Below the pieces are notes generated by a model. The model saw nothing but the letters and a program-made list of their open reading frames with translations, was not told the origin of the DNA and did no database searches. Of a stretch of 64,000 nucleotides of DNA, positions 14,868-58,046 are shown piece by piece. The position numbers were made by a program, and so were the translations under genes. Within the stretch, counting starts at the first letter, position 1; each line of letters begins with the position of its first letter. Origin of the DNA: Candidatus Omnitrophota bacterium. GTDB lineage: Bacteria > Omnitrophota > Gorgyraeia > Zapsychrales > Fredricksoniimonadaceae. Location of the stretch: positions 5,003 through 69,002 of the forward strand of contig CAIUQE010000049.1 in the NCBI GenBank assembly GCA_903901225.1, written 5' to 3'.

Positions 14868-17800
14868 ATGCGCTGTCGCGGCGTTTGTATAATAACAGCT
14901 TTCTTCTTCACTACATCCCAACTGGCATTCCTTCCGGCCAGGGGAGATGCCGCGGTTTACACACCGCCTCAAATGGGCTTTTTGACCCCAACGGCGCCCT
15001 CCCGGGATATCCTTCTCCACGGTCTTGAATTGGACCCGAATACGACCCGCAGGATGAAATTCATGTTCAGGGCTGGTGAGAAAGAGCTTTTGCCGGCCGA
15101 TGCCATGCGGCAGATAAAATATTTTTTGACCGCGCTGACCATTCCCGAGAATGACCTGTGGGTCAATTTGTCGCCGTTTGAAGCAGACCGTATCATTTCC
15201 TATCCTTTTGGCGTGACGGATATGGGACGAGGGTTTCTGGAGCAGGATTATATTTTAAAACAGTTTTGCGCGTCATTGCTTCACCCGGAAAGCCCCAGTG
15301 GCAGGGAATTCTGGGCACGGATCCGCCAGGCCGGGCTTGGATCAGCGGCATTGGACAACAATGGCCAGTTCAAATTTATCGACAAGGTATGGATCACACC
15401 GAGGGATGCCATCGTTAAACAGGATCACGGCAGGGTTTATATCCGCAAGAGCCGTCTGCAGGTCATGTTCCGGGAAGATCCCGGAGTTGTTGCCGTTTCA
15501 TCCGAAAAGATCTCCGGGATCATCAGGGAAGTCCTCTTGCCATATATTGACAGGGAGGTCAACGAAGGAAAGCTTTTTATGACACTGCGTCAGATGTACG
15601 CGGCGATGATCCTCGCGGAATGGTTCAAGCGCTACGTTGCCGGAAAGTCTGTATGGCGGCAGGCTTTCATTGGCCAGAAGAAGGTGGGCGGTCTTGATAT
15701 TGATGACCCTGCTGTTCCCCTAAAGGTTTACGGCAATTATTTAAGAGCGGTTGAAACGGGGGTTTTTAATTATGTCCATGAAGACGTGGATCCGGGGACC
15801 GGAGAAGTCATTCCACGGAAATATTTTGCCGGCGGGATCTCGGCCGGTTCAGGCCCGTCCAGCCTGAGGCATATCTTGCGTGTCGAGGACAATGATCTGC
15901 CTTCCGATTTCGCGGAAAAATCTCCTGACAAGGACACGGAGATACCGGTGTGGATGCAGGATATCCCGGCGAGGCCTGTGGATGTTAATAGTCAGCTGAA
16001 AGACCAGGTCAGGAAAGGCCTTGTCTGCCGGGTTACGCGCAAGGAGGACGGATTTGTTTTTAAACCGGAAGTCCCTTATGGCATAGAACCTGACCTGATC
16101 AGGGTGTATTCCATGACCGCGAAAACATTCGTGCTGCAAAAGCAATACGCGGCGTACCTTGAGGCGGCGCGCGCACGCCAGGCACTTTTGGATGCCATGC
16201 AACACCATGAGGAAGCGTTCAGGGATTATACGGCTTCCCGGAAGGAGGCGCTTGTGCGTATCGCTTCGGAGATCGACCTGTACCTTGTGAACGGGAGTTT
16301 TACTTTGTTCCGTAACGGACCTTTAACACATATTCGCTGGGGAACGTATCGTAGTGACAATGATCTTTCCTATTCCGGCATCTGGCTTGGTGAGCGTGTG
16401 TTGTCGGCGTTGGATCAGGATGAATTTTCCGCGTTCCTGTTGCTGGAAGCGCGCAATTTTCTGGATGGGAACAATGAAAAGATGGAAGCCTATCCTTTGT
16501 ACAGGAAGATCGCGGCGTTGTCAGGATCTTCAGGCGAAACAATACCGCTCATGGAAGGGCAGGATCAGTCCCTGACATCGTTGCGTCAAAGGCCGGAAAA
16601 CAGCCCCGGTAACAGCGCATTTTTTATTAACAGCACACTGCCTCAGGAACGCCAGCTTTACAAAGAATCTCTGGCGGCTCGTTTTGCCGGTACGGACTTG
16701 ACAGTGAATGAAAGAATGAAGGTCGTTAACGCGTTGGCGAGGATATCTGATGAAGCGCTGCGCCTGCGCCGTGAAAGCTGGCCTTTTTTGGAGGCGCAGA
16801 AGATTTCCCGCCAGGAGGATATTGACGCCGTTGCCATGGCTAAAAACCTTCTTGCGGAAAAGAACAAATACGCGTTGTTGCAAAACGAGGTTTACGAAGC
16901 ACTCTTCTCCTCTGATGAGGTCGAGTCTTTGTTGTTCAAGAAGCTTATTCCGTATGCCTGGGTCGAGCTTCTTCTTCATGAAGGTGCTTCTACCAAAAGC
17001 ATCCTTTTCCTTTGCCAGCATAGTGATGATCCGCTCGGCCAATGGGAAAAGATATGCGCTTTCAGGGCAGTTTACGAGAAAGACGGTGTGCCGCCGGCAT
17101 GGGCGCTTCTTTTGTCTTTTTCGGGGAAGAAGGTCATGGACCTGTGGGAAACCACTTTAAAAAATGAGCGAGAGGATCTGGTTCGTCAGGGACTTGACCC
17201 GTTGTGGGCCACGTATCTTGTCCTGATGCATCCACGCGATGCCGTGCGTTACTGGAATGATGACATTGAACCTAAGAAAAGAAAGATCCAGCAGGAACGC
17301 GGATTGAGCGACGCCTGGGCAACCTTTTATGCCGTGTTTGACAATGAAAGTTTGAAACACGACGATTCTCCTTTCGCGTTCCTTAGGGGGGCTGATTCCC
17401 TGAATTTGCAAGCTCCGGACCTGGCTCTTCTGCAGGATGAGGGGGTTGCGATGGGGCTTGATCTGCCTCACGACGGAAAGGTGCAATGGGAGCAACAGAT
17501 ACAGCACTGGCAAAGCGCCTTGATGAAGAAGGGTTTTGAAGAGCCTCTTTTGACGTACCTTCTGCGCGCTTATCAGAACCCGATGGAGAAAGCGGTCAAG
17601 ATCGAGGAGCTGGCACTGCTGATCAAGAGGTTCGATCCGCGGGTCAAATGGCAGGAAGCGTTATTGACAGCGTTCAAGCTTTTTCATCCGCGATCTTATG
17701 CGGACAAACAGGAGGCGCGCGGTACCGGCGATATCATCAAGCATCTTCTGTTCGGGCGCGGCAAGCGGGGGCACAGGAATTATTATCAGGGATATATTTT

Positions 17801-18659
17801 CGCTTCAAAGTTCGAACGCGACACAGCCATTATCCTGCGGTATTTCGGATTGATCGGGAATATTCAAATGGGGAAGAACTGGCAGGTGCCGATGGATCAG
17901 CTTTGCGTCGATTTCAAGTTCGAATATAAGGGCAGGCAGATCATCATGGAGCCTCACCAGGAGCCGCAGGGCCAGTTGTATCTTGTCAATCGGGCGGATA
18001 TCGAACATATACTGGGGAATGACCCGCGGACCCTGGAGTATTTGTTCGTTAATCCGAGTATGAGATCGTTGAAATTCCATCCTGATTTTCTGTCCAGAGT
18101 GGATCGGCTTTCTTTGGCTGACGTCAGAAAAGATATTCTCAGGAATCTTTGGCAGATCAATATGGGGCGGACCATCTCCAGTTACGCGGCCGACCGTGAA
18201 AATACCCTGCGTCAGTTCGAACACACGAATTTTTCCTTGTATGCCTTTGAGTCCACACAGAAACTCTATGGCATCCTTCAGGATTATTTCGATATAACGG
18301 TCACTTCAAACGATAAAAAAGCGATCTCTCGGCTTATAACGGAAGCGAATTCCAGGAGTGATTATCATATTGTCAACAGCCTGTTGATGTACTGGACCGG
18401 CATGAGCAATTTACAAAAAGCGCTTGAGGGCGAGGGCGTGTTGAAGAAGAGAGCGCGAGATCTTGCCGGCACAACGGTTGGGTCGGAGAACGGCGGTATT
18501 GATTTTGATCAGAAATACCTGGATCTGAAAGTTGAGCCTGGAGAAGAAATTCAGGACAGCTTCCATGCGCCATATCCTGCTATTTCGGACAGGGGTCTGG
18601 ATGGCTTGAGGCCTGTGATCCTTCATGTCAACGCGCGCTTTATCGATATCAGTTTGTAA
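14868..18659 (+). CDS. Giant-paralog family member 2 (1263 aa). The conserved N-domain is the most divergent copy. It has a long unique middle of unknown function and the conserved C-tail.
   Basis: N-domain: ...KYFLTALTIPENDLWVNLSPFEADR...KVWITPRDAIV...REVLLPYIDREVNEGKLF..LRQMYAAMILAEWFK...VFNYVHEDVDP.TGEVIPRKYFAGG. C-tail: NGGIDFDQKYLDLKV...RPVILHVNARF. RBS GGGAGG lies before the ATG. Confidence 0.85.
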   Translation: MRCRGVCIITAFFFTTSQLAFLPARGDAAVYTPPQMGFLTPTAPSRDILLHGLELDPNTTRRMKFMFRAGEKELLPADAMRQIKYFLTALTIPENDLWVNLSPFEADRIISYPFGVTDMGRGFLEQDYILKQFCASLLHPESPSGREFWARIRQAGLGSAALDNNGQFKFIDKVWITPRDAIVKQDHGRVYIRKSRLQVMFREDPGVVAVSSEKISGIIREVLLPYIDREVNEGKLFMTLRQMYAAMILAEWFKRYVAGKSVWRQAFIGQKKVGGLDIDDPAVPLKVYGNYLRAVETGVFNYVHEDVDPGTGEVIPRKYFAGGISAGSGPSSLRHILRVEDNDLPSDFAEKSPDKDTEIPVWMQDIPARPVDVNSQLKDQVRKGLVCRVTRKEDGFVFKPEVPYGIEPDLIRVYSMTAKTFVLQKQYAAYLEAARARQALLDAMQHHEEAFRDYTASRKEALVRIASEIDLYLVNGSFTLFRNGPLTHIRWGTYRSDNDLSYSGIWLGERVLSALDQDEFSAFLLLEARNFLDGNNEKMEAYPLYRKIAALSGSSGETIPLMEGQDQSLTSLRQRPENSPGNSAFFINSTLPQERQLYKESLAARFAGTDLTVNERMKVVNALARISDEALRLRRESWPFLEAQKISRQEDIDAVAMAKNLLAEKNKYALLQNEVYEALFSSDEVESLLFKKLIPYAWVELLLHEGASTKSILFLCQHSDDPLGQWEKICAFRAVYEKDGVPPAWALLLSFSGKKVMDLWETTLKNEREDLVRQGLDPLWATYLVLMHPRDAVRYWNDDIEPKKRKIQQERGLSDAWATFYAVFDNESLKHDDSPFAFLRGADSLNLQAPDLALLQDEGVAMGLDLPHDGKVQWEQQIQHWQSALMKKGFEEPLLTYLLRAYQNPMEKAVKIEELALLIKRFDPRVKWQEALLTAFKLFHPRSYADKQEARGTGDIIKHLLFGRGKRGHRNYYQGYIFASKFERDTAIILRYFGLIGNIQMGKNWQVPMDQLCVDFKFEYKGRQIIMEPHQEPQGQLYLVNRADIEHILGNDPRTLEYLFVNPSMRSLKFHPDFLSRVDRLSLADVRKDILRNLWQINMGRTISSYAADRENTLRQFEHTNFSLYAFESTQKLYGILQDYFDITVTSNDKKAISRLITEANSRSDYHIVNSLLMYWTGMSNLQKALEGEGVLKKRARDLAGTTVGSENGGIDFDQKYLDLKVEPGEEIQDSFHAPYPAISDRGLDGLRPVILHVNARFIDISL

Positions 18660-18672
18660 ATATTCCCGAGGG

Positions 18673-19302
18673 TTATTGGACAACAGACGGATGCATTTTC
18701 CGTTGAATGGCTTGAGTGGTTGGGTCACCAGTGGGCAAAGCGCTCAGCATTTGATCCAGGGCGTATTTGAGGTTTTTGACGTCCTCCCGTAAACCGGGAA
18801 CGTCCTGAGCGGTGATTTGCGCTTTAAAGTTGTTGAGTTGTTCATTGATATCGTCACATTGTTTGTTCAGATCAGGGATCTGATTTCGCGCGGCATCTGT
18901 TTTTTCTTCAACCTTGAGCAAGGTTGTCACGTAGTCTTTTTGCCAGCCGTTCATTGTTTTTTTCAGTGCGTCCGTTTCTTCGCGCGTTGTTTTTAAGGCA
19001 TCATTGGTTGTTGAAAGTATATGCGTGGTTTTGTCAGTCAGTTCTTTCTGGGAAGTCAGCAGGGAGCTTTGCTCGTTGAGCTGTCGTTTCAGGGTTTCGA
19101 TGTCAGCGCGCAGGGCGCGGGTCTGTTCGTTCTGATCGAGCAGTTTCATGTTGGCGGTCTTAAGGTCGTTGCGTTGCTGGTTGCAGGAAAAGTACAGGTA
19201 GAGGAGCATCGACACGGCCGCTATCGCGAGGATCCCGAGCGAGACAGGTCGCGCGGATTTCCGGATATTAGAAAGTAATAGTTGTGGTGTTTGCTTGTCC
19301 AT
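18673..19302 (-). CDS. Coiled-coil membrane protein (N-terminal TM helix, then a ~150-aa Q/K/E/L-rich coiled coil). It is embedded on the opposite strand between giant paralogs 2 and 3.
   Basis: TM LGILAIAAVSMLLYLYF, then heptad-like ...LKRQLNEQSSLLTSQKELTDKTTHIL...ETDALKKTMNGWQKDYVTTLLKVEEK.... It is the only gene interrupting the array. Confidence 0.5.
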   Translation of the reverse strand: MDKQTPQLLLSNIRKSARPVSLGILAIAAVSMLLYLYFSCNQQRNDLKTANMKLLDQNEQTRALRADIETLKRQLNEQSSLLTSQKELTDKTTHILSTTNDALKTTREETDALKKTMNGWQKDYVTTLLKVEEKTDAARNQIPDLNKQCDDINEQLNNFKAQITAQDVPGLREDVKNLKYALDQMLSALPTGDPTTQAIQRKMHPSVVQ

Positions 19303-19397
19303 GGCTGCCGTTCCAGGTCACGTTTGTTTTGCCAGGAAGTATAAACCATGATTTTTCAATAAACAAGTGTTGGATGAAAATTACCCGGAGATCACCA

Positions 19398-22300
19398 ATG
19401 AAAAAGACCATAGCGTTCCTTGTTCTTGTTAGTTTTTTTGTTACAAACATCGGCCAAAGTGCAACGTATGCCCAAAGTTTTCACTTGCCCGCAGCCGGAG
19501 GCATGGTCCATCTAAGTTCACCGTTCGACCCGATAATGCTTCAAGGCATTAAAGTTCATCCTGAAGATCCGTTCAGGTTCGATTTTATTGTTGATAAGGG
19601 CGATAGCTCACTGGGTCATGATCAGTTCAAAGGGGAATCAGGAAAATTGATCCGGTACTTTCTTGCCAGTCTGACGACGCCGGAAAAAGACCTGTGGGTC
19701 AATCTTTCGCCTTACGAAAAGGATCGTGTTATTCCTGATAGTTTTGGTTTGACGGAAATGGGCCGTGACTTGCTGGCGGAAGATTACATTCTTAAACAGG
19801 TCACAGCCTCATTGATCTATCCGGAGGATGCCATAGGAAAAGAATTCTGGAAACGTGTTTATGAAGAAGCCGCAAGGAAATTTGGCAGGACAGATATCCC
19901 GCTTGATACCTTCAATAAAGTTTGGATCGTTCCCCAAAAGGCTGTGGTGTACGAGAATGTTAAAGCGGGGATAGCTTATGTCGTGGAAGCCAGGCTTAAC
20001 GTCATGCTTGAGCAGGATTATTTATCTCTCCAGCAACATGTGACAACACGACCTGAACAGGGCACGGCGGAAGAGGCCAATCAGCTGGGAAGCCAGATAG
20101 TACGTGAAGTGGTTATCCCTGAATTAACCCAAGAGATCAACCGGAACAGCAACTTTGCCCGTCTGCGACAGGTCTATAATGCATTGATCCTGGCCACATG
20201 GTACAAAAAGAAGATCAAAAACAGCATATTGTCCCGGATTTATGTCGACAAAGATAAAACGGCCGGGGTCCAATATGCCTCGACAGTCCTTCCGCCTGCA
20301 AAGGGCGTCAGGGCCAAGGATGATGTTGAGGGGATCTATCAGGAATATGTGAAAGCATTTCAAAAGGGTGTTTATAACTATATCAAGGAAAGTGAGGATC
20401 CTGTGACGGGGCAGGTTGTCCCCAGGAAATATTTTTCAGGTGGTTTTGGTGCGACAGACCTTTCCCAGGTGACGTTTGAAACGACACAAGATCCCGCGGC
20501 GGTTTCATTGGAGAAAAAGCCTCTATGGGACATATCCGTACAGCTTGCCGGTGCCAAAGGCCCGCGCGATGCGTCGATGCTTCCCAGGCCTTTGGGAATG
20601 GAACATGTTCGGGAGCTGCTGGATGCTTATATTGCTGATCACAGATCGCGGGATTTATTCCGGGATTTAAAGGGAATGGGGATCGAGCCAAACCAATTTA
20701 AAGACGTATTGCACGCGCAATTTCAGGCCATTTACCAGGATTATCCGCACGGGGCTGTGAATCCGGTGCAATTGATCAAGGAGGATCCCCGGTTGAAAGA
20801 TTTCCTGGTACGTCTTTTCACTCAAAGAAAAGTTCGCGCGGGGATGGATCCTGAGGTGATGAACAAAGTTTTTGACAAATTGATCCAATATGGGGAAGAC
20901 CCTGAATTGGCAAGGCATAAAGTTTATGAGGAGGTCATTGATTTTGAACGTGATCGGGATTGGCTCAAGTTCAGGGGGAAAAAAGATGTTTCCGACCATG
21001 GGTTAGCTCAGATTCTGCCGTTTATTCAGGATATTAACCTGCTTTCTGGGGCTACTGTTGTCAATGTGGGGGCCAATAATTCCGGGTTAGGCGCCATGAT
21101 CGCTGAAAAGTTCCCGGGTTTAAATATAGTAGATTCTGACATTGAATCAGCCAGGACCGTCGGTTGGGAAAATCCTGCGGGTCTTGCGAATCTCTCCTTT
21201 CACCATCAACCTGGCCCCATGCAGACAGGGTTTGATGATAAATCTGTTGATGTCATTATTTTAAGCAGCATGCTCCATCATGTGACGATCCAGGCTTTCG
21301 ATGGATTCATTAAAGAATTGCGCAGGATCCTTAAGCCTGGAGGGAGGATCATTTTGCGAGAAGACAGTTTTTCATATTCTGAACAGGTGGCTGCAACGGA
21401 TGGACTCAATGAGGCATTAACGCGCGAATTTTTGAGCCATGATGAACAATTCATCATTAACGCGTTCATTTTTATTGACTGGTTTGCCAATACGGTCATG
21501 AACAAGCGCATTATGCCGATGCCGTTTGATTTTCAATCACAGGAGACATGGCAAAAGGTTTTCGCGCATTACGGGTTTTCAGAAGAGAGCGCAACTACCT
21601 ACGGCATGCCTTATATGCGTTCAATGCAGGAATTCCGGTTGACGTCAAATGCAACGCCGCGTGTGCCGCTCGCCATTCGCGTTGACCCGAACACCAGGTT
21701 AAACCTTCTTTTTAGCCTTCTCTTCACACCTGTGCAGCAAAAGAGTCTGCAAATTTCCTATGGGATCAGGGACGTGGAACGTGCTGGTTGGGTGTTCAAT
21801 AAGATTCTTTCCCCTGAAACAGTTGCCGATCATAGCTGGGGAACAACGCTACTGGCATTGTTGTTGGCACCTTCAACATTGGATGTGAAGCGTGTTATCG
21901 CGATGGCCTTAATGCATGATATTGCCGAAGGTCCCATGAAGAAAGATTATCGTCCTGGAGAGATCGATGAGAAAGTAAAGCATGCCATGGAGGAAGCTGT
22001 CTTTTCAAAAGTCATACAGCCTTTTTCCCAGCGGGACGAATGGGACAGTATGTTTAAGGAGTTAAATCTGGCTACAACCCCTGAAGCAAGGTTCCTCAAA
22101 GTTGTGGACAGATTTGATATGTGGTTACAGGCGAGATTTTATAAGAAAGTGTACGGGGACAGGATCGATTTCGAAAGTTTCTTTAATAATGCCAGAGCCA
22201 TGTTTGAAAAACAGGGTGACATTGGAAAACATGTCCTGGGTATTGTTGATAATCCTTCAAAAAACAAGGACCTCCTTGACGCGCTGGACAAAATTTATGA

Positions 22301-23819
22301 ATTAAAGCTGTCATCTGAAATGAGGAAGGGATCCCCGGCTTCAGAGGCATGGACAAAAAGCTGGACATACCTGAGCACAACATCGGTAGAAAACGACATT
22401 TTACCAGGCCTAGGTTTGTTAACGTTGGCGCCCATACTTGCTCGACCAGATCTCAAGGGCTCTTTAGATGTAATTTTAGAACATTCGTATAATCCCAAGT
22501 TTTTACAGAACGTTGTTGAAACAGCCGGGAATGAGCAAAATCGCGGTTTGATCGATGATATCACGCAAATTGTCAACAGGATCTCCAATGACCGTATCAA
22601 GGGGGCGGTTCCGCAAGATACATCGATCCTGCTCAAGACAGACAAGGATATACTTCATTTTCTTCTCCTTGCGGCCCAGGATCGTCCGAAGGAATATCCA
22701 TTGGCCCGGGTTGCCGCAGGGTTTGTGGCGGGCAATGATCGTTTATCGGATGAGATCGGGGTTAATCATTATGGCTCTCATGAACATGCCGAAATAAACC
22801 TGATCTTAAGCATACTTGAAAAAGAAGCTGTCAATGTGCAGCCTAAAAGGCAAGGCAAATATGAAAAGTTGCTAAAACAGGTACGGAAGTTTGTAAAAAA
22901 GGAGAAATTAGATACTAAGAAAGGATTGTTTTTGATCCGCAAGGTCCTTAGGTTAGCGGACCAGCCGTTCAAGGATGGAAGTTTTTATGTGACACTCATG
23001 CCATGCAGTTCTTGCCAGAATATTTTGAAAGAACTCGGCCTTAAAAGGATCATTTATTCTGAAATACATCCTGATTCCCAAAAAGCAGAAAAGTGGCAGC
23101 GTCAATTTGAAAAGCTTTCCAAGAAGAATGGGATCAAAATTATTCACGTTGACATGTTGGCGGCCGAAGTTCAGCCCAATCAGCTTTTCGCTTCAATTGT
23201 CGCAAAGTCCCCGGAAGGGCATAGCCGGTTTCAGGAAGCATATCACGGGTTCATAGATCGGAACATGGATGAGGATGCCGTTGCATTAATTGACAAATGG
23301 TTGTCAGTTCATAAGAGCAAGCTTGTTGATATCATTGCGTTCTTCGGGAATGTGATGCCGGATGACGCTCCGGTTCTTTTTGATATTTTGTTTGGTCGCG
23401 TTGTGGATGTCGACAAGTTGAAGGATGTATTTCAGCGATATGGGGATACGGAAGGATTTGCTTCATATCTGAGCGCGGTCCATCGTATCTCGCATAGCAC
23501 GTATGTTGATCAAGTTATCAATAAAGCGTCCATGAGTGTTATTGAAAGAAGTCCTGATAAGGCCATGCGAACAACAGATGGTGGTATTGATCTGGGTCCG
23601 GATAAAATGAATTTGGAACTGCGGCAGGATGATGGGGAAATTCAATTTAATCTGGATCCAGGCATGGTCGAACAATTTCGGGCGGTTCCTGGTTTCGTGC
23701 CGGTTATTTTCAATATCCAGCCGATGACGAACCTGAAGATGTTTTTAGGGTTGAAGGAGCAGGGAGATCAGCAGATGATAGGCGCCGTTGCATCGACGCC
23801 GCCCGGCATGGCAACCTGA
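19398..23819 (+). CDS. Giant-paralog family member 3 (about 1470 aa from the ATG at 19398). It has a signal peptide and the conserved N-domain. Its cargo has a class-I SAM-MTase-like segment, an HD phosphohydrolase domain, and a CDA-like zinc deaminase motif. It ends with the conserved C-tail.
   Basis: Signal peptide MKKTIAFLVLVSFFVTNIGQSATYAQS (RBS GGAG 7 nt upstream). MTase-like VVNVGANNSGLG...LKPGGRIILRED. HD: HSWGTTLLALLL...ALMHDIAEGP. Deaminase: GSHEHAEINLI (22779-22793) ...YVTLMPCSSCQNILKELGLKRIIYSE (PCxxC at 23001-23015). C-tail: DGGIDLGPDKMNLEL...NLDPGMVEQF...GFVPVIFNIQPMTNLKMF. Confidence 0.85.
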   Translation: MKKTIAFLVLVSFFVTNIGQSATYAQSFHLPAAGGMVHLSSPFDPIMLQGIKVHPEDPFRFDFIVDKGDSSLGHDQFKGESGKLIRYFLASLTTPEKDLWVNLSPYEKDRVIPDSFGLTEMGRDLLAEDYILKQVTASLIYPEDAIGKEFWKRVYEEAARKFGRTDIPLDTFNKVWIVPQKAVVYENVKAGIAYVVEARLNVMLEQDYLSLQQHVTTRPEQGTAEEANQLGSQIVREVVIPELTQEINRNSNFARLRQVYNALILATWYKKKIKNSILSRIYVDKDKTAGVQYASTVLPPAKGVRAKDDVEGIYQEYVKAFQKGVYNYIKESEDPVTGQVVPRKYFSGGFGATDLSQVTFETTQDPAAVSLEKKPLWDISVQLAGAKGPRDASMLPRPLGMEHVRELLDAYIADHRSRDLFRDLKGMGIEPNQFKDVLHAQFQAIYQDYPHGAVNPVQLIKEDPRLKDFLVRLFTQRKVRAGMDPEVMNKVFDKLIQYGEDPELARHKVYEEVIDFERDRDWLKFRGKKDVSDHGLAQILPFIQDINLLSGATVVNVGANNSGLGAMIAEKFPGLNIVDSDIESARTVGWENPAGLANLSFHHQPGPMQTGFDDKSVDVIILSSMLHHVTIQAFDGFIKELRRILKPGGRIILREDSFSYSEQVAATDGLNEALTREFLSHDEQFIINAFIFIDWFANTVMNKRIMPMPFDFQSQETWQKVFAHYGFSEESATTYGMPYMRSMQEFRLTSNATPRVPLAIRVDPNTRLNLLFSLLFTPVQQKSLQISYGIRDVERAGWVFNKILSPETVADHSWGTTLLALLLAPSTLDVKRVIAMALMHDIAEGPMKKDYRPGEIDEKVKHAMEEAVFSKVIQPFSQRDEWDSMFKELNLATTPEARFLKVVDRFDMWLQARFYKKVYGDRIDFESFFNNARAMFEKQGDIGKHVLGIVDNPSKNKDLLDALDKIYELKLSSEMRKGSPASEAWTKSWTYLSTTSVENDILPGLGLLTLAPILARPDLKGSLDVILEHSYNPKFLQNVVETAGNEQNRGLIDDITQIVNRISNDRIKGAVPQDTSILLKTDKDILHFLLLAAQDRPKEYPLARVAAGFVAGNDRLSDEIGVNHYGSHEHAEINLILSILEKEAVNVQPKRQGKYEKLLKQVRKFVKKEKLDTKKGLFLIRKVLRLADQPFKDGSFYVTLMPCSSCQNILKELGLKRIIYSEIHPDSQKAEKWQRQFEKLSKKNGIKIIHVDMLAAEVQPNQLFASIVAKSPEGHSRFQEAYHGFIDRNMDEDAVALIDKWLSVHKSKLVDIIAFFGNVMPDDAPVLFDILFGRVVDVDKLKDVFQRYGDTEGFASYLSAVHRISHSTYVDQVINKASMSVIERSPDKAMRTTDGGIDLGPDKMNLELRQDDGEIQFNLDPGMVEQFRAVPGFVPVIFNIQPMTNLKMFLGLKEQGDQQMIGAVASTPPGMAT

Positions 23820-23913: not shown

Positions 23914-26871
23914 ATGAATCTTCGTAAGAAAACTTTTATGTTTCGCTTGATGGCAGGCTGGATCATTTGCAGTTTTGTGTCTTCTGCCGTGATCCCGTCG
24001 GGTGCGCATGCCCAGGCGCTTAATTTGCCGGCGCCCGGCACCCGCATTTCTTTGAGCCCCGGTTTCACGCCGCCGCTTCTTAAGGGCATCAAGGTTTTTC
24101 CCGACGATCCGTTCCGTATTGATTTTATCCTTGATAAAGGTGATTCTGCCGGAACAGATGATCAGGTCAAGACAGATTCTAACCGGCTCATCAAGTACTT
24201 CCTCGCGTCGCTCACTGTTCCCGAAAAAGACCTTTGGGTTAATCTGTCGCCGTATGAAAAAGACCGTACTGTGCCAGATGCTTTTGGCCGGACCGAGATG
24301 GGCCGTGACCTGCTGGCCCAGGATTATATGCTGAAACAGATCACAGCATCTGTTTTCTCCCCGGATGGTGAACTCGGCAGGGCATTTTGGGCCAGGGTTT
24401 ATGCCGAAGCTCAAAAGCGTTACGGCACAACGGATATTCCGGTGGATACTTTTAACAAGGTCTGGATCATGGCGGACAAAGCCGTTGTTTACGACAACAA
24501 AGACACGGCTTTTGTTGCCGAAAGCCGCTTGAAGGTTTTGCTTGAAGAGGATTACCTGGCCTTGAAGCAGGAAGCGGGGGAGGGCCATGGTGACGCCCAC
24601 ACACTGGCTTCCAATGTGATCCGTGAGGTGATAATTCCCGCTCTTGAGAAAGAAGTCAATGAAGGCCGGAATTTCAGCACATTGCGACAGGTGTATCGGT
24701 CCCTGATCCTGGCGATATGGTACAGGAAGAAATTGCAAGGTGGGATCCTGACGCGGGCTTATGTTGGCAGGAACAAGGTGGCAGGCATCAATATCCGTGA
24801 CCCTTTTGAAAACCAGAAGATCTACAGCCGCTATGTGCAGGCATTCCGGGATGGCGCGTTTAATTACATTAAAGAAGAGGTGGACCGTTCTTCCGGGCAG
24901 ATGATCCCGCGGAAATATTTCTCCGGAGGCTTGGGTTTTATGGACGCGGCGGAGCACGTTGTCAGTTTGCCTATGAGTTACAGCGTTATGCCAGCTGTTG
25001 ACAAAGGACAGGGATGCTGTCACATCACGACACGGCTACAACCCCTTTCCAGTCCAGAACGGGTACTGGCCGCTGGCCATATTTTGTTGATACCTGACGG
25101 GAAGAACAGCACGCGCGTGGAGATGGGGATCCCGCCGGATGTCAGACTCTCTATGGTCGAGAAGATGCGCAAGGCCGAAGATTTTTCCATGACGAGCGAT
25201 GGTCAGGGATCCAGGCGCCTGAGATTCAGGATCAACAGTTCGGTAGAGAAGATCAGGAGTTTTCTGAATTTTGTTCCCTGGGAGCGGCATGCGGCCAAGG
25301 TCCTGGTGGCCGGGACAATGGTCTTTTCGTTTGTTGCGCTTTCATCACAGGTGCCGGAACGCGCCATCACCGTGGTGGACATGGTGCTGGTCGCGTTTAT
25401 CCTGCTTCTGGAATTGCTGGAGCGCCAGGAAAAGAGATTTCTTTCGGACCATGATTATTGGCTGAAGGTGCTGGAACGTTTCTATGACCAGGGGGTGTTC
25501 TCTAACGGTCATTCCGCACAGGAAGTGATGAGATTTTATCGTCGCTATTATCAGGAATTTGTGGACAACCTGGATGATGACCGGGAAGAAGAGACCCTGG
25601 AGTTGCTGGTCGGGACTTTGCCTGAGAAGGATATTCTGGATCTGACACACACGCCGCGCACAAAGTTCGAGGAGCGTCTCGGGTGGGCCTGGAGCAGGCG
25701 TGCGGAGAAATATAAGGAATTTATGAAGGCCCATCAAGGCTATGGGCACGTATTCCAAGCCAGCGGCCAGGAGAATTTGAAGGGTTTATCCCAGGAATTC
25801 GTGACACAGGCGTTGCAATTTTATAATACCCAGGACCATGCGGTCAGGTATTTTCTGAGCAAAACAGAGCGGGACGATCTGGCCAGGTTCCTGGCCGGGC
25901 ATATACCGGCCATACAAAAGTCCCGGATCATTGATGTGGGACCGCACCAGCCAAGCGTTATTCAGCAGTTGATGTACTGGGATCTTGTCTACCAGGCCGT
26001 GGATACGTTTTCATCGTCGTCAAAGGATGATTCCCAATCGACTGAAAAAGAGATGTCGATGAAAATAAGGAATGAGCTGGAAGGATTCGGCTTTGATTGG
26101 CGCAACGGGAAAGTCTTCTGGGATCCGCTGAAGAACAGGCATGCTGAATGGGATCCGGACATCTCATGGGTTCCAAAGGATGGTGGGTTGGATGTCAAGG
26201 AAATGGGAGACTTGCCATCTCTTGAAATTGAAGGCATGTTGCCTTATACAGCGTCATCACATGCCTTGTTCCTGAGTGTGGTCGACATTAAAGGACGCCG
26301 TCTACCCGTGGTTATTAAGCAGTATGATGATGTATCAGGGGGTGTAGGTTATTATGTTATGGCGTTTGTTCCTGGGGAAGCAAGGACATTATCGAGAATC
26401 AGTTCTTTGGAGAGGGACGGATTCCTGCCCCTTGATCTGGTAGATAAACGTAAGCAGGTCACCAGGTTCTTTGTTAAAAAATTTTATCATCCTCCTGAGG
26501 AATTTATTTATACGCCCAAGGGTAATGTGATCCCCATTGATCCGGAAGAGTTTGATAGCATGGCCGGAACGTTGAAGGTGCCCTCCGTAGAGCCTGCCAA
26601 GGCATATATTTGGGGCCAGTTAGGTGGGCCGGAATTCTATGGCCTTGTCAAATTTTCAATAAATGGCAGCGGTCAGACGCATGAGAACGAGGGAGGGGTC
26701 GATCTGACCACGGGCACGATAGACTGGCGGGCCCAAGATCAGGGGGGAAGAGAAGGATCGGATACCGACTTTGCCATGTTGCGGGGCCTGGACAGGGTCA
26801 CAGGTATTTCGCCCATGATCGTGAGTATCCAACCCGTGACGGACATGAAATCATTTTTCCATATAAAATAA
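23914..26871 (+). CDS. Giant-paralog family member 4 (985 aa). It has a signal peptide, the conserved N-domain, a unique middle containing a hydrophobic helix, and the conserved C-tail.
   Basis: N-domain: ...IKVFPDDPFRIDFILDKGDS...KYFLASLTVPEKDLWVNLSPYEKDR...DTFNKVWIMADKAVVY...REVIIPALEKEVNEGRNFSTLRQVYRSLILAIWYRKK...AFNYIKEEVD..SGQMIPRKYFSGG. Hydrophobic stretch VLVAGTMVFSFVALSS...VLVAFILLLELL. C-tail: EGGVDLTTGTIDW...FAMLRGL...GISPMIVSIQPVTDMKSF. Confidence 0.85.
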   Translation: MNLRKKTFMFRLMAGWIICSFVSSAVIPSGAHAQALNLPAPGTRISLSPGFTPPLLKGIKVFPDDPFRIDFILDKGDSAGTDDQVKTDSNRLIKYFLASLTVPEKDLWVNLSPYEKDRTVPDAFGRTEMGRDLLAQDYMLKQITASVFSPDGELGRAFWARVYAEAQKRYGTTDIPVDTFNKVWIMADKAVVYDNKDTAFVAESRLKVLLEEDYLALKQEAGEGHGDAHTLASNVIREVIIPALEKEVNEGRNFSTLRQVYRSLILAIWYRKKLQGGILTRAYVGRNKVAGINIRDPFENQKIYSRYVQAFRDGAFNYIKEEVDRSSGQMIPRKYFSGGLGFMDAAEHVVSLPMSYSVMPAVDKGQGCCHITTRLQPLSSPERVLAAGHILLIPDGKNSTRVEMGIPPDVRLSMVEKMRKAEDFSMTSDGQGSRRLRFRINSSVEKIRSFLNFVPWERHAAKVLVAGTMVFSFVALSSQVPERAITVVDMVLVAFILLLELLERQEKRFLSDHDYWLKVLERFYDQGVFSNGHSAQEVMRFYRRYYQEFVDNLDDDREEETLELLVGTLPEKDILDLTHTPRTKFEERLGWAWSRRAEKYKEFMKAHQGYGHVFQASGQENLKGLSQEFVTQALQFYNTQDHAVRYFLSKTERDDLARFLAGHIPAIQKSRIIDVGPHQPSVIQQLMYWDLVYQAVDTFSSSSKDDSQSTEKEMSMKIRNELEGFGFDWRNGKVFWDPLKNRHAEWDPDISWVPKDGGLDVKEMGDLPSLEIEGMLPYTASSHALFLSVVDIKGRRLPVVIKQYDDVSGGVGYYVMAFVPGEARTLSRISSLERDGFLPLDLVDKRKQVTRFFVKKFYHPPEEFIYTPKGNVIPIDPEEFDSMAGTLKVPSVEPAKAYIWGQLGGPEFYGLVKFSINGSGQTHENEGGVDLTTGTIDWRAQDQGGREGSDTDFAMLRGLDRVTGISPMIVSIQPVTDMKSFFHIK

Positions 26872-26968: not shown

Positions 26969-29900
26969 ATGCTCAAAAAGACAGTTTCCTCTTTTTTGTT
27001 GTTTGTTTTCTGCCTGACCAGTGTGGCAGCCCCGGACGGCCGTGTGTTCGGCCAGACCGTGGCTGTCCTTCCGGCTCCTGGAATGTTGGTGACCCCAAGT
27101 CCGGCGTATATGCCGGTCATGGCGCGCGGGTTAAAAGTCCATCCGGAAAACCCCCTTTTGTTTGATTTTATTGTGGATGTCGGTGATCCCGGTTTCGTCG
27201 TTGAAGGATCTCAGTTCAAGGCTGAGTCCGAAAAACTCATCAAATATTTCCTCGCTTCGTTGACAGTTCCCGAAAAAGATCTTTGGGTGAATCTTAGCCC
27301 TTACGAAAAAGACAGGATCGTTCCGGAAGCTTTTGGCCGGACAGAAATGGGGCGGGATTTGCTCGCCCAGGACTACATTTTGAAACAGATAACAGCATCG
27401 CTCATTTACCCGGATGAGAAGACAGGCAAGGAGTTCTGGGATAAGGTCTACGCCCAGGCGTTGAAACGTTATGGCACTACGGATGTCCCGGTAGACACGT
27501 TCAATAAAGTGTGGATCGTCCCCGAGAAAGCCACGGTTTATGAGAACAATGATGCGGCTTATGTCGTTGAATCCGGATTAAAGGTTATGCTGGAGAGTGA
27601 TTACGTAGCCATGTCCCATCAGAAGGACATGGCGGAGTCCTCGGCACCCGCCGAGGATGTGACCATGTCCCATCAGAAGGACATGGCGGAGTCCTCGGCT
27701 CCCGCCATGCAAAATGAGGAAATGGTGCGTAGGGGCGGGTCTCAGACCCGCCCACTTGAGACGGCTACGCAAGAATTAGCCAAACCGGTTCTTCGTGAAA
27801 TCATCATTCCCATTCTCGAAAAAGAAGTGAACGAGGGCAAGAATTTCACAGCGTTACGCCAGGTCTACAGCTCGCTGATCCTCGCGACATGGTACAAGCG
27901 GAAGTTCAAGGCCGGAATTTTCGGCCAGGCCTACGTCGATCAACAGAAGACCGCTGGCGTAGACATTGCTGATAAGAACGAGAAAGAGAAGATCTGGGCG
28001 CAGTATGTTGAGGCGTTCCAAAAGGGTACCTATAACCTGATCAGAGAGGAAGTTGACCCAACAACGCAAGCGATAGTGCCAAGAAAGTATTTTTCAGGTG
28101 GCTGTGATCTGGCGATGGATGTGTTCAAGACGGCCTCGTCTGCTGTATTACCAGTGTTGGCTGATCGCGCGGCCATTGTTGAGGTGAAGGTCGATTACGC
28201 ACAGGAGGATCAGGAGGGATCTGACACGCCTCCCAGTTTGACCCGTATTGACGATATTAAGCGGCTTTTTACCGGGCTCAATGATCTGGACGACCGGCTG
28301 GGAGTTCCTCATTATAATTCCAGATGGCATCGTGAAGGAGGTTATGACGCCACACTCAAGGATCATTTACAGCGGATATTGAATGTGAAGAATGATATCC
28401 TCAGCCATAATTTTCCAGGGAGCGATCAGGATCAGGAGCTGATCTCCCTGGTGAGAGCGTATGCGTCCAGGGACAATGATGAACTGGATGCCATGATCTT
28501 GTTGCATGATCATGGGAAAAAAGAAGCGGCTTTCAGGAATAAGCATGGCGATATGGGGTTTAAGGGGCATGAAGAAAAAGCTTATCGTTCGCTCATTAAT
28601 AACAAGGTGATGTATAAAGGGAAAGCCTTGTCCCATAGGATCAAAATGGCTGTTAAATATCACGATATGCACTGGAAGATCAATTATGCCCATCCGGGAG
28701 AGTTTGAAAAAACAATCCACATGATGCGGAAGGATTTTAATGGGTCACTGGATGACTTTGAAGAAGCCTGCGAGTTTATAACAGCATTCTCTGTGATCGA
28801 TGTTCTGGGATCTTTATGGGAAGGCGATCGTCGGGGTGATCTGGGTAGCGTCAGAACATTCCATGAGCATTTTCTGGCCTGGAAAAAGGCGCGCAAGAAG
28901 TTTGACAGGGCGGAGGATCATTCCGTTGTTTTTGGAGGCGGGAAGTTAAATTTGGATCATCCGCTGGTCATATCAGGGCGGATCATTGGCATTGAGGATT
29001 ACGACAATGTCGGTGGATCAAATTTGGCGGATTATGCCAGGAAGAAAGATGTTAAACGTATTTATTTTGACCTGGACCTGACGGTCTTCCGGTCCATGGG
29101 GTATGTTTCTTCCAGCCAGTGGTTTGAGCACGCGTCTAAAGAGTTCGGACTGGAACAGACCTTATGGTGGTGGGGTAACAGGGGTCATGAGGCGCGCCAG
29201 ATCGATAACGATTTTTTCTTCAGGTTAATGGATCCCGGGATCCCGGCCATGATCGAAGGTTTGAAAGCACAGGGCATTGAATGCGTTGGATTGACCGCGC
29301 GCGATAATGACAAGGATGAACCGCGCACGCAGGAGATCCTTGCGAGATTTGGCGTTGAAATGAATGATGTGATCTTTGCGTCCGGCGCGGCGGCCAAGGC
29401 CCAGGCTGTGGATGATTATGAGAAAGGTCATGGCCGTTTGCGGGCCTTGTTTGTGGAAGACAGTTTCTTTAATTTGGAGAAATTTTTGCCTGTTCACGCG
29501 CATGTGGATGCTATTTTTTACCGGCCTGTGAATGCCAATCAGGAAGATGAATGGGATCATAAGGTCTATCTTGAAAAAGCCCGTGCGGACACGTCCAACG
29601 GGCATAAGTTTGAATATTATTTCAATGCCGTGGTCAAGATCCTGGAATTAAAGGGCATTACTCGTGAGATCGCCTATGAGCAGTTGCATCAGATCCATCA
29701 CGAGCTTCTGCGGTTGCCAGACCCCAAGCCGGCAGGGTATGACAAATTAATTCAGGTCCTGGAGATCAGTAAGAAAGGCCAGTCGTATTTGTTCCATGAT
29801 CCAGAGGCGCGGGAATTGCGGGAGAAGAGATCCAAAGACAGGGCGATGCTCAGGGATCCCGGCGGTATCGACCTTACCCCCGGCAAGATCGCCCTGAAGA

Positions 29901-30043
29901 CCAGAGATATTGGTGAGGCGATCAAGTTCAACAGTGATCCTGCCATGCTCCAGAGATTACAAAAGGCTTCTGGCGTGACTCCCGTCATTATTGGCATTCA
30001 TTCATTGGACAGCCTCCGGAAGTTCATGAATGTTGGCCCATGA
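26969..30043 (+). CDS. Giant-paralog family member 5 (1024 aa). Its conserved N-domain carries a tandem duplication and a palindromic-repeat insertion. Its cargo has an HD-like segment and a HAD-superfamily phosphatase-like segment. It ends with the conserved C-tail.
   Basis: The N-domain is ~88% identical at the nucleotide level to paralog 1 over the first ~200 nt compared. HD-like: AMILLHDHGKKE. HAD motif I: RIYFDLDLTVF (29066-29086), with later FVEDS. C-tail: DPGGIDLTPGKIALK...KFNSDPAMLQRL...GVTPVIIGIHSLDSLRKF. Confidence 0.85.
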   Translation: MLKKTVSSFLLFVFCLTSVAAPDGRVFGQTVAVLPAPGMLVTPSPAYMPVMARGLKVHPENPLLFDFIVDVGDPGFVVEGSQFKAESEKLIKYFLASLTVPEKDLWVNLSPYEKDRIVPEAFGRTEMGRDLLAQDYILKQITASLIYPDEKTGKEFWDKVYAQALKRYGTTDVPVDTFNKVWIVPEKATVYENNDAAYVVESGLKVMLESDYVAMSHQKDMAESSAPAEDVTMSHQKDMAESSAPAMQNEEMVRRGGSQTRPLETATQELAKPVLREIIIPILEKEVNEGKNFTALRQVYSSLILATWYKRKFKAGIFGQAYVDQQKTAGVDIADKNEKEKIWAQYVEAFQKGTYNLIREEVDPTTQAIVPRKYFSGGCDLAMDVFKTASSAVLPVLADRAAIVEVKVDYAQEDQEGSDTPPSLTRIDDIKRLFTGLNDLDDRLGVPHYNSRWHREGGYDATLKDHLQRILNVKNDILSHNFPGSDQDQELISLVRAYASRDNDELDAMILLHDHGKKEAAFRNKHGDMGFKGHEEKAYRSLINNKVMYKGKALSHRIKMAVKYHDMHWKINYAHPGEFEKTIHMMRKDFNGSLDDFEEACEFITAFSVIDVLGSLWEGDRRGDLGSVRTFHEHFLAWKKARKKFDRAEDHSVVFGGGKLNLDHPLVISGRIIGIEDYDNVGGSNLADYARKKDVKRIYFDLDLTVFRSMGYVSSSQWFEHASKEFGLEQTLWWWGNRGHEARQIDNDFFFRLMDPGIPAMIEGLKAQGIECVGLTARDNDKDEPRTQEILARFGVEMNDVIFASGAAAKAQAVDDYEKGHGRLRALFVEDSFFNLEKFLPVHAHVDAIFYRPVNANQEDEWDHKVYLEKARADTSNGHKFEYYFNAVVKILELKGITREIAYEQLHQIHHELLRLPDPKPAGYDKLIQVLEISKKGQSYLFHDPEARELREKRSKDRAMLRDPGGIDLTPGKIALKTRDIGEAIKFNSDPAMLQRLQKASGVTPVIIGIHSLDSLRKFMNVGP
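27611..27706 (+). repeat. In-frame tandem duplication, 54-bp unit x 1.8 copies, encoding MSHQKDMAESSAPAEDVT / MSHQKDMAESSAPA, inside the N-domain linker of paralog 5
   Basis: Unit 1 is 27611-27664 and unit 2 is 27665-27706. There is a single mismatch (gcaccc versus gctccc). Confidence 0.8.
27727..27754. repeat. GCGTAGGGG-hairpin family, copy 4 (stem gggcgggtc / gacccgccc, loop tca), embedded in-frame in paralog 5, encoding ...VRRGGSQTRPLE...
   Basis: gcgtaggggcgggtctcagacccgcccac. This is the same 29-mer as the intergenic copy at 3940-3968 except for 2 loop nucleotides. Confidence 0.65.
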
Positions 30044-43923: not shown

Positions 43924-44070
43924 TGAAGTTTCCCTCCTTATGAATGTTGATGGGCTGAGGTACTTTTTTCCCTGAAAATATGAAGTTAGGAGGGGAGAGT
44001 TTATTTCATATCCCCGTTAGTCGTTCAAAGGGCGTTACCTGACCGGTCGGTATACCTTAAGGGGACGTTT

Positions 44071-44463: not shown

Positions 44464-44563
44464 TCTAAGCGATTTTTATTCGTTTTAACGGTAGCATGAG
44501 CGGGTTGGGGATTTTATCAATATAAGATCGATAAGGGACTGCTGGAATAAGGTTTTTTGAAAT

Positions 44564-58038: not shown

Positions 58039-58046
58039 ATCAAAGG

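Follow-up and report, generated by a model that had tools for sequence, protein, structure and literature searches.

The locus examined here lies in a window of 64,000 nucleotides (the whole stretch of DNA that was analysed) from a Candidatus Omnitrophota bacterium, and it raises the question of what is done by a short module found at the end of five neighbouring proteins. An earlier note on this DNA claimed that five plus-strand ORFs, ending at positions 14865, 18659, 23819, 26871 and 30043, share an alignable tail of ~60 residues, and took this tail for a candidate secretion, sorting or anchoring signal. The ORF ends and the alignment are confirmed, a tail profile matching the five proteins with E-values from 5e-11 to 7.5e-29 (2.2e-17 for G1), while the description of the proteins as giant is not, as their sizes are 704-1,511 aa. 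All on the + strand, they are G1 (12751..14865, 704 aa), with a signal peptide, an N-terminal domain (hereafter N-domain), a helical cargo and the tail; G2 (14868..18659, 1263 aa), the most divergent member; G3 (19374..23819), whose listed ORF of 1511 aa starts at GTG 19284 although ATG 19374 or 19398 is the likely start; G4 (23914..26871, 985 aa); and G5 (26969..30043, 1024 aa), which bears the tail singled out in the earlier note and is identical to the database protein P0001. The range 29850-30043 given for that tail corresponds to the G5 tail and its stop codon.

The tail consists, in order, of a GGIDL hairpin, a DPAML helix, a G-x-x-PVII-x-I segment and a final P...L..FLG. It spans 14662..14856 (+) in G1 (GGIDI at aa 643, DPAM at 668), 18480..18635 (+) in G2, where it is degenerate (GGIDF ... 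HAPYPAI ... RPVILHV), 23562..23759 (+) in G3 (GGIDL ... DPGM ... VPVIFNI ... FLGL, followed by an unconserved extension of 22 aa to 23816), 26677..26868 (+) in G4 (GGVDL ... DFAM ... SPMIVSI ... FF) and 29846..30037 (+) in G5 (GGIDL at aa 965, DPAM at 990, then TPVIIGI and L..FM). The pattern proposed earlier does not hold throughout: in G2, HAPYPAI replaces DPAM and the final L..F is missing, as is the last F in G1, and G3 runs on for 22 aa. Pairwise identity among the five tails is only 16-36%. Across the family, the invariant or near-invariant residues are the GG and D of GGIDL, the D of DPAM, the G, P-x-I and F.

When the window was scanned in all six frames with a profile built from 33 tails of the family, exactly the five C-termini matched (E about 1e-28 for G5, 1e-26 for G3, 1.5e-20 for G4, 3e-17 for G1 and 7e-11 for G2), with no further match at E<=1. 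In public protein data the profile matches 4,658 protein clusters, so the tail is not confined to these five proteins, and 1,685 matches reach E<=1e-10 among 1.84 billion proteins. These numbers, together with the window E-values, refute the view that the tail is a chance resemblance or simply the terminal β-strands of whichever cargo domain precedes it; only the short length of the motif speaks for that view, to which practically no likelihood is left. The residues preceding the tail are indeed unrelated, the middle regions showing no blastp similarity in any of the 10 pairs among the five proteins; since the cargos differ, the tail cannot be the closing strands of each of them. A modified version of this idea fares better, namely that the tail may supply the final structural element to a conserved N-domain scaffold.

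The earlier note on the tail does not mention the other parts in common. The same five proteins share, in addition to the tail, a signal peptide and an N-domain of ~300 aa (E 6e-106 to 3e-162). The N-domain occupies 12871..13812 (+) in G1 (aa 41-354, E 2.5e-143, after a signal peptide of aa 1-~36 ending ...VMA|Q), 14967..15839 (+) in G2 (aa 34-324, E 6e-106), 19485..20447 (+) in G3 (aa 68-388 of the 1511-aa ORF, preceded by the signal peptide MKKTIAF...TYA|Q), 24025..24933 (+) in G4 (aa 38-340, signal peptide ending AHA|Q) and 27068..28105 (+) in G5 (aa 34-379, signal peptide aa 1-~28). With a variable middle of at least 189 aa and the C-terminal tail, all five are thereby members of one protein family, of which 187 complete members were analysed. 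From N- to C-terminus, a member consists of a cleavable Sec-type signal peptide ending in ...YAQ or AxA, the N-domain, a short boundary segment (SGG-x-DL ... D-x-A-M), the cargo, a second D-x-A-M, the tail, and 0-65 polar, unconserved residues without a common ending. A hydrophobic h-region is present in 116 of 123 members and a positive n-region in 105 of the 123, with a YAQ/AxA c-region.

The tail is a signature module at the C-terminus of this family, which is large, of Omnitrophota type and without annotation; its clusters at 50% identity number at least 4,600, and it appears to be undescribed so far. The best 79 genomic loci all come from Omnitrophota-type MAGs. Many copies can be found per genome, often in tandem, as with the five in the window and with several loci from the same MAGs. 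No homologue of the N-domain (~315 aa) was detectable, and both the N-domain and the tail are without a match in Pfam, the NCBIfam sorting signals and the PDB.

Between these two modules, the cargo is hypervariable and 189-2,946 aa long, with no middle region below 189 aa. Mostly enzymes of cytoplasmic type are found there, such as methyltransferases, HD, NUDIX and deaminase nucleotide enzymes, radical-SAM enzymes, kinases and GNATs. The G3 cargo combines a methyltransferase, an HD phosphohydrolase and a dCMP-deaminase-like domain, and that of G4 has two TM-like hydrophobic segments (aa 460-502, nt 25291-25419). Of 17,391 protein pairs, no more than 80 have any cargo in common; among the 289 pairs with 80-90% identical N-domains, the number is seven. 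Judged from these sequence comparisons, the cargo behaves as an insert swapped between fixed ends.

The two ends are coupled. Among 120 N-domain homologues, 107 also have the tail, at a distance of 0-28 aa from the stop, and the remaining 13 look truncated. When the 79 loci, 1.1 Mb of Omnitrophota DNA, were scanned for both modules, 62 ORFs carried N-domain and tail; 26 N-only ORFs all run off their contig, four pairs of an N-only and a tail-only ORF are separated by a frameshift or a stop, five seemingly N-only ORFs have divergent tail variants, and no closed tail-only ORF was found. Long tail proteins seemingly devoid of an N-domain were mostly explained away on inspection: P0172 and P0142 have an N-domain ORF just upstream, P0248 is a fragment of the 3,032-aa P0262, which has both signal peptide and N-domain, and P0169 and P0125 are cut by contig ends. 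One robust exception is P0231 (825 aa), found on contigs of 148 kb and 73 kb, which has a perfect tail without signal peptide or N-domain. Both modules also diverge together, their identity matrices being correlated (Spearman 0.67, against a maximum of 0.16 in 500 permutations), and variant tails sit on the lowest-scoring N-domains. Tails of same-genome paralogues are no more alike than their N-domains predict (residual -0.02). No credible couplings between head and tail emerged from mean-field DCA (Neff 150). Co-divergence of N-domain and tail is also expected from plain co-inheritance in one gene.

This coupling bears on the idea that the tail is an autonomous sorting or docking signal, recognized in trans after Sec export by an outer-membrane or surface component that would sort, secrete or anchor the protein much as happens with a T9SS CTD or a dockerin, with a separate role for the N-domain. 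The tail is strictly C-terminal in the best 150 of the 4,658 matches, its carriers are signal-peptide proteins with unrelated cargo, which fits a role in trafficking or handling, and the invariant GG, D, D, G, P.I and F could form a recognition code. Folding only on a partner would also suit a docking peptide, P0231 has a tail without N-domain, and tails within one genome can diverge as much as known sorting signals. However, the matches do not make up the diverse substrate family that the earlier note anticipated but one protein family, equally defined by its ~315-aa N-domain, with essentially no tail apart from an N-domain. The distance from tail to C-terminus ranges from 0 to 65 aa, no TM segment is seen in the tails, no NCBIfam or Pfam sorting-signal model was matched, and among the neighbours no transporter, sortase or Omp85-like gene is conserved. 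An independent signal is rather unlikely, though far from negligible. What stands of the original proposal is a C-terminal module on Sec-exported, hypervariable proteins; what speaks against it as worded is that complete carriers always have the N-domain alongside and that the tail is not predicted to fold alone.

Comparison with known systems leads to none of them. The partner gene expected earlier, a transporter or sortase, does not recur as a neighbour in the 79 loci of 20 kb; ABC/FtsX-type genes occur in 11 of the 79, at variable distance, and look like background. The earlier judgement by eye that the tail is no PEP-CTERM, LPXTG or T9SS CTD is upheld by NCBIfam and Pfam searches and by hydropathy. 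T9SS cargo resembles the family in combining a Sec signal peptide with a C-terminal module on diverse proteins, and its CTDs are likewise poorly conserved within a genome. The T9SS CTD is, however, an autonomous β-sandwich of 70-100 aa in Bacteroidota with no companion N-domain, whereas the family tail has ~60 aa, is not predicted to fold alone and is paired with an N-domain (except in P0231). No T9SS CTD profile (TIGR04183/TIGR04131, Por_Secre_tail/CHU_C) matched the five proteins at E<=0.01 or the 33 tails at E<=1, and PorK/L/M/N, SprA and PorU/V are not recurrent among the neighbours in the 64-kb window and the 20-kb loci. LPXTG, PEP-CTERM, GlyGly-CTERM and MYXO-CTERM signals, which are also short conserved C-terminal elements on signal-peptide proteins, comprise a motif, a TM helix and a basic cluster at the extreme C-terminus. 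The tails of the five proteins reach a maximum 19-aa hydropathy of 0.67-1.35 with no TM-like segment in the last 70 aa, and a sortase, exosortase or rhombosortase signal is rejected on this ground, on the variable polar ending and on the absence of an NCBIfam match.

T1SS/RTX proteins are secreted in one step, without a Sec signal peptide, and have GGxGxD nonapeptide repeats and an adjacent ABC/MFP/TolC operon. This identity is rejected given the Sec-type N-terminus of 116 of 123 members, the lack of any RTX/HemolysinCabind Pfam match and the few loci with ABC/FtsX genes. In MARTX toxins (e.g., Vibrio RtxA1), conserved ends bracket an array of effectors that is shuffled by recombination and processed at inter-module sites, and transport of the middle through a membrane is attributed to the two ends acting jointly. 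These toxins leave the cell by T1SS without a Sec signal peptide and have long glycine-rich A/B/C repeat ends and a cysteine protease domain. The resemblance is architectural only, with no sequence similarity; no corresponding Pfam or NCBIfam model matched, and the family has a Sec signal peptide. The two-partner secretion exoproteins TpsA and CdiA and other polymorphic toxins, which are large and multi-copy, have, like the family, a conserved domain (~250-300 aa) directly after the signal peptide, and a boundary motif (VENN in CdiA, D-x-A-M here). In toxins of this type the variable part lies at the extreme C-terminus and is followed by an immunity gene, and a TpsB gene accompanies them; in the family, the variable part is instead internal and capped by the conserved tail. 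The gaps G1/G2, G3/G4 and G4/G5 are 2-97 nt and therefore leave no room for immunity genes; as the N-domain has no Haemagg_act match in Pfam and no Omp85-like neighbour recurs, a TPS/CDI identity is rejected. Cellulosomal dockerins are also short (~60-70 aa) C-terminal modules on many secreted enzymes and work by binding a partner domain. Each consists of a duplicated Ca-binding loop-helix motif and attaches to the cohesins of a scaffoldin; the enzymes that carry dockerins have no N-domain in common. The tails have no Pfam match (Dockerin_1) at E<=1.

Structure prediction points to a partner closer at hand. Modelled alone with AlphaFold (33-sequence alignment), the tail yields a mean pLDDT of 59.8 and a pTM of 0.25, with one helix and no strands, whereas in the full-length G1 model it reaches pLDDT 64-86, with strands at 644-646 and 653-659 and a helix at 669-676; this contrast spans different proteins (G5 and G1) and alignment depths (33 and 60 sequences). 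The tail is thus predicted not to fold autonomously. Its 7-residue strand in the G1 model has no adequate partner within the tail, and the only long strands outside the tail lie in the N-domain, predicted by AF2 with pLDDT mostly 80-96 across aa 40-330. Contact between tail and N-domain is deduced solely from the DSSP string and the pLDDT contrast. It can be proposed that the tail docks back onto the N-domain, the pair forming a two-piece chassis for swappable cargo, a reading that we favour tentatively and put a little below an even chance. After Sec export, the tail would not be a free-standing peptide tag but would fold back, its first hairpin adding to the β-sheet of the N-domain, so that head and tail would make one scaffold from which the cargo extends as a closed loop between two related boundary elements.

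The need for a partner would equally suit intermolecular docking, in which a tail would complete, or bind to, the N-domain of a different family member, as donor strands or cohesin and dockerin do, giving surface-attached heteromeric enzyme arrays. Many paralogues per genome, often in tandem, would provide the components, and P0231 would suit a chain terminator or client. Against it, the AlphaFold monomer model already shows a structured tail, and the divergence of a tail follows that of its own N-domain, without homogenisation within a genome, which favours pairing in cis or recognition limited to the invariant core. Such arrays are quite improbable.

For docking in cis, the composite chassis would be the conserved functional unit, presumably a handle for exporting, anchoring or delivering whatever payload recombination inserted. 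The analysis identified no partner machinery for it. Omnitrophota are abundant, uncultured and ultra-small bacteria thought to live off other cells, probably as parasites. In this family, a near-unlimited set of enzymes that would be useless in the periplasm is combined with a Sec signal and a conserved module at each end. It is conceivable, if speculative and rather unlikely, that the pair is the handle of an unrecognised delivery or display route of these host-dependent bacteria, with hundreds of paralogues per lineage on one chassis bringing cytoplasm-type enzymes via Sec onto or into host or prey cells, by MARTX-like self-translocation, a new trans-acting sorting machine or head-to-tail surface arrays. 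In that case the effector repertoire of the phylum and its address label would have been identified, and a simple profile search would catalogue the effectors; N-domain and tail are a testable handle for finding the machinery. Should the tail merely complete the N-domain fold, the family would still be a clean natural case of large-scale domain insertion, with cassettes exchanged between fixed ends.

The boundaries of the cargo are marked in their own right. The motif D.[AS]M is ~10-fold enriched (471 observed, 49 expected) and clusters 0-50 aa past the N-domain, 5-30 aa before GGIDL and at +25 within the tail; it can also be found between the modules of multi-domain members, e.g., P0262. In G5, a pre-tail D-R-A-M lies at 29837..29848 (+), 8 aa before GGIDL, and G3 has DKAM at nt 23556. 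Within the cis scaffold, these D-x-A-M boundaries would be candidate processing sites. It can also be envisaged that the tail, perhaps with the N-domain, is a removable pro-region, plug or intramolecular chaperone, cleaved at D-x-A-M to free the mature cargo, its conservation serving as well as a 3' homology arm for cassette exchange. The enrichment at both boundaries and between P0262-like modules is consistent with this, as is the extreme turnover of cargo, but no protease domain was identified in the scaffold, the motif also opens a predicted helix within the tail (DPAM), where it may be structural, and the window tails show no DNA-level repeat, hence no recent recombination there. A removable end-piece is improbable, if slightly less so than intermolecular docking. 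Beyond the N-domain, G5 has the boundary segment KYFSGG-CDLAM (28085..28117, +), a tail-like GG.DL + D.AM element, with equivalents in G1 (DHAM, nt 13834), G3 (DASM, nt 20568) and G4 (DFSM, nt 25180). This post-N-domain segment bears a marginal resemblance to the first half of the tail, as suggested by hhalign (E 1.4e-4, probability 53%) and by a domain E of 0.0012 in P0123.

The C-terminal tail is a real and highly significant feature of five paralogous proteins encoded on the plus strand of the window, namely G1 (12751-14865), G2 (14868-18659), G3 (19284/19374-23819, with alternative starts), G4 (23914-26871) and G5 (26969-30043), the last being the protein of the earlier note. With a profile combining these five tails and those of 28 database homologues, exactly five C-termini were matched in the six-frame translation of the window (E-values 7e-11 to 1e-28), and no sixth match was found at E<=1. 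The ~60-residue module proposed earlier (GGIDL...DPAM...PVI...F) is thus common to all five proteins, and the pattern then written down is essentially right in the alignment of 33 tails, where GG, the D of GGIDL, the D of DPAM, G, P-x-I and F are invariant or nearly so across the family, the tail of G2 being a degenerate copy. Pairwise tail identity among the five ranges from 16 to 36%. As regards the middles, the residues ahead of the tail are indeed unrelated, blastp revealing no similarity in any of the ten pairs.

Translation and five-way alignment of G1-G5 show a hydrophobic N-terminus, then a strongly conserved N-domain of ~300 residues (motifs DFIxD, KYFLASL, WVNLSPYEKDR, DYILKQ, REVxIP, EVNEG, LRQxY and PRKYFSGG), a middle of 280-1,040 residues in which the paralogues are dissimilar, and the ~60-residue tail. 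The earlier argument, in which a C-terminal module kept invariant by secreted proteins that diverge elsewhere denotes a sorting or secretion signal, is therefore not quite applicable, since an even larger N-terminal module is also common to these proteins. Among the 123 database members having a complete N-terminus, 116 display a hydrophobic stretch and 105 a net positive n-region, and in most of them a c-region of the type ...(V/S)YAQ or AxA directly precedes a conserved LPxPG; judged from these features, the N-terminus is a classical Sec/SPase I signal. Tat is not the rule, given that an RR-containing motif can be found in only ten of the 123. No TM-like segment was found in the tails, and past their FLG lies an unconserved polar extension of 0-65 residues without a common ending.

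Numerous relatives can be found, apparently forming a large and undescribed family of Omnitrophota. With G5 as query, more than 4,600 significant relatives were retrieved; those bearing a name are all proteins of 'Candidatus Omnitrophica/Omnitrophota' MAGs. Identity is 46-76% over a best local alignment covering mainly the N-domain. When one genome per GTDB species was scanned with the N-domain alignment, at least 591 loci were obtained, of which the best 79 are all in Omnitrophota MAGs; among these, some carry the automated-pipeline label 'uncultured Planctomycetales' and one that of Ca. Elulimicrobium. An exhaustive comparison of the tail profile with 1.84 billion representative proteins gave 4,658 matches at E<=1e-3, of which 1,685 pass E<=1e-10; all of the 150 best lie at the C-terminus. 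The tail profile was expected to define the substrate family; it does gather a large set, but one not united by the tail alone, the N-domain being common to it as well. No match to tail or N-domain was found in Pfam, NCBIfam, PADLOC, PHROGs or PDB sequences and, as NCBIfam includes models of known C-terminal sorting signals, the dissimilarity to these previously judged by eye holds. No description of the family was found in the literature on Omnitrophota secretion, effectors and protein families or on 'GGIDL'. A phage origin was considered and rejected, with only three family matches in 2.9 million viral contigs.

The tail is tightly coupled to the N-domain. It lies 0-28 residues before the stop in 107 of 120 N-domain homologues, and the C-termini of the remaining 13 look cut. 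In a census of stop-to-stop ORFs over 1.1 Mb around the 79 loci, both modules can be found in 62 ORFs, while 26 N-domain ORFs extend beyond the available sequence. Four ORFs with the N-domain only are directly followed by a tail-only ORF, and hence are genes interrupted by a frameshift or stop, five others have recognizable variant tails (GGID...G.P.I..I.P), and two N-domain ORFs lack a tail. No closed ORF with a tail but without an N-domain was found in this 1.1 Mb. The representative library contains many tail matches that are short, or that are long yet devoid of an N-domain; eight such proteins were traced to their contigs. P0172 and P0142 are split genes with an N-domain ORF immediately upstream. 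Contig ends truncate P0169 and P0125, and perhaps also P0246, whose start lies 45 nt from such an end. P0248 matches the C-terminal part of P0262, a 3,032-residue member with signal peptide and N-domain, at 90% identity and represents a fragment of such a member. P0182, whose contig measures 1.4 kb, has an N-terminus resembling a Bacteroidota-type M43 peptidase and is possibly a chimeric assembly. The sole robust case is P0231 (825 residues, a perfect tail, neither signal peptide nor N-domain), found on two contigs of 148 and 73 kb (L082 5001-7478 and L083 3099-5576), where it adjoins IS66 transposase and integrase/recombinase genes. Its cargo, i.e., the region ahead of the tail, has relatives among the cargos of ordinary members, and the protein can be either a decaying remnant or evidence of the tail working alone.

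A signal recognized in trans, for sorting or docking, is a serious rival explanation of the tail, with which its strictly C-terminal position among the best matches and P0231, if functional, would be in line. The neighborhood offers no partner for it: all-against-all clustering of 774 ORFs from the 79 loci yielded no gene family recurring beside these genes above background, including the co-occurring transporter or sortase-like gene suggested earlier. The only recurrent families, ABC/FtsX (11 loci) and PAS-histidine-kinase (10 loci), lie at variable distances and were judged to be background. Of the sorting-signal reading, the general idea of an end module related to trafficking has partial support; its form is unsupported, since the tail is no autonomous and portable tag with identifiable machinery.

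A two-piece carrier, in which head (the N-domain) and tail bracket a payload, agrees best with the data. Head and tail are inherited together and diverge together: over 187 complete proteins, their identity matrices correlate with a Spearman coefficient of 0.67 (permutation maximum 0.16), and the tails of within-genome paralogues are no more similar than N-domain divergence predicts. Between the two modules lie 189-2,946 residues (median 659, never zero) in the 187 complete members, and cargo similarity can be detected in just 80 of 17,391 protein pairs and in 7 of 289 pairs with N-domains 80-90% identical, which indicates that the two ends are inherited together and the middle is replaced; the payload would be freely exchanged by recombination. 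Head and tail would probably also fold together. In an AlphaFold2 model of G1 based on a 60-sequence family alignment, the N-domain (residues 40-330) is confident (pLDDT mostly 80-96), with helices and long beta-hairpins at 58-77 and 188-215, the cargo is helical and poorly predicted, and the tail is ordered (pLDDT 64-86), with strands at 644-646 and 653-659, a helix at 669-676 and then ordered coil over PIILKV. Modeled alone from 33 aligned tails, that of G5 is unfolded (mean pLDDT 59.8, pTM 0.25), its sole element being the DPAMLQRLQ helix. The structure prediction suggested earlier gives an ordered tail in full-length G1 and no more than a helix in the isolated tail of G5. Assembly of the head of one molecule with the tail of another is a serious rival to the two-piece carrier. 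A head-versus-tail DCA (187 sequences, Neff 150) yielded mainly indel and short-range artefacts and had no power. The best Foldseek match of the G1 model in the PDB had an E-value of 0.12. ClyA-family alpha-pore-forming toxins (MakA, MakE, NheA, SmhA, ClyA) recurred as weak matches (E 0.15-8) and were not counted, because of a TM-score of ~0.1.

A third serious rival is a tail acting as a cleaved pro-piece, on which a motif at the module boundaries bears. D-x-[A/S]-M is enriched ~10-fold in the family proteins (471 observed, 49 expected) and concentrated 0-50 residues past the N-domain, 5-30 residues before GGIDL and at +25 within the tail (DPAM); it also recurs between the modules of the multi-module P0262. 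On the plus strand of the window it can be found in G1 at residues 362, 423 and 668 (nt 13834 and 14017 for the first two), in G3 at 429 and 1425 (nt 20568 and 23556), in G4 at 423 (nt 25180) and 952, and in G5 at 380, 957 (nt 28106 and 29837) and 990. The motif may be a processing site or a linker cap. The segment directly past the N-domain (SGG-x-DL ... D-x-AM-[IV]V; 28085-28117 in G5, and in every member at the corresponding place after PRKYFSGG) looks like the first half of the tail in degenerate form (hhalign E 1.4e-4, probability 53%), and in one protein, P0123, a domain match between the two was obtained (E 0.0012). Because of this resemblance, two related elements appear to flank the cargo, which is suggestive, not proven.

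The middles of G5 relatives are highly varied in their Pfam domains, which include GNAT, many methyltransferases, radical SAM/B12, HATPase_c, NUDIX, PEP-utilising enzymes, His_Phos_1, APH kinases, Zeta toxin, EPSP synthase, epimerases, glycosyltransferases, GDSL lipases, peptidase M48 and HEAT/TPR repeats. Among the window middles only that of G3 (20900-23200) has recognizable domains, namely a SAM methyltransferase, an HD (YfbR-like 5'-deoxynucleotidase) phosphohydrolase and a dCMP/dCTP-deaminase-like domain. ATP-, SAM- and Fe-S-dependent enzymes, along with nucleotide-modifying ones, occur in the cargo repertoire; combined with Sec export, this argues for a payload acting in the cytoplasm of another cell, not in the periplasm of the producer, a reading drawn from established enzymology and not itself a result. 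In their logic, MARTX toxins come closest among known systems, with exchangeable effectors held between conserved ends and processing between modules, and TPS/CDI exoproteins have similar elements (signal peptide with a conserved N-terminal domain, and a boundary motif). Since every testable defining feature of both is absent here, the likeness is one of analogy, not membership.

Further observations concern individual cargos. The nucleotide-pool-modifying trio of G3 has weak similarity to anti-phage dCTP deaminases. The cargo of G4 contains two adjacent TM-like hydrophobic segments (25291-25419, residues 460-502; 19-residue hydropathy 1.67 and 1.89), unusual in a Sec-exported soluble payload. 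That of P0262 comprises ~16 tandem repeats of ~68 residues, each beginning ...SPEKAMEYYDQHK and each marked by the x-A-M motif, then HATPase-like, methyltransferase-like and glycogen-synthase-like parts.

G1-G5 lie nearly end to end between housekeeping genes, with SerRS, a response regulator and an RsmB-like methyltransferase on the 5' side, and a PEBP-family gene and ThiC on the 3' side. The response regulator (11115-11690) has an excisionase-type HTH_17 DNA-binding domain and may or may not regulate the array, the RsmB-like gene intervening. There is no space for immunity-type genes between G1 and G2, G3 and G4, or G4 and G5. The paralogues are 2-97 nt apart except for G2 and G3, whose gap of ~710 nt (18660-19373) is of lower G+C and holds an antisense ORF of 209 residues (18673-19302). 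A promoter and terminator scan of the array gave nothing above background level. DNA-level repeats in the window are confined to the N-domain coding parts, and tails serving as a DNA-level recombination handle were accordingly rejected. The 5' parts of G1 and G5 (12867-13166 and 27064-27363) are 79% identical in DNA sequence, clearly above the 67-73% of other paralogue pairs, which suggests that duplication or gene conversion took place recently and was restricted to the beginning of the N-domain. An insert in the N-domain of G5 contains a tandem duplication (27609-27706; 44-nt repeat, 54-nt spacing, 98% identical) encoding MSHQKDMAESSAPA two times. Lastly, G+C falls from ~0.56 to 0.33-0.46 across 44000-64000, where a PMT_2 glycosyltransferase, four B12-binding/radical-SAM enzymes, an amine oxidase-like protein and three SGNH/GDSL-like paralogues are encoded, probably an acquired island for surface-polymer or lipid modification.
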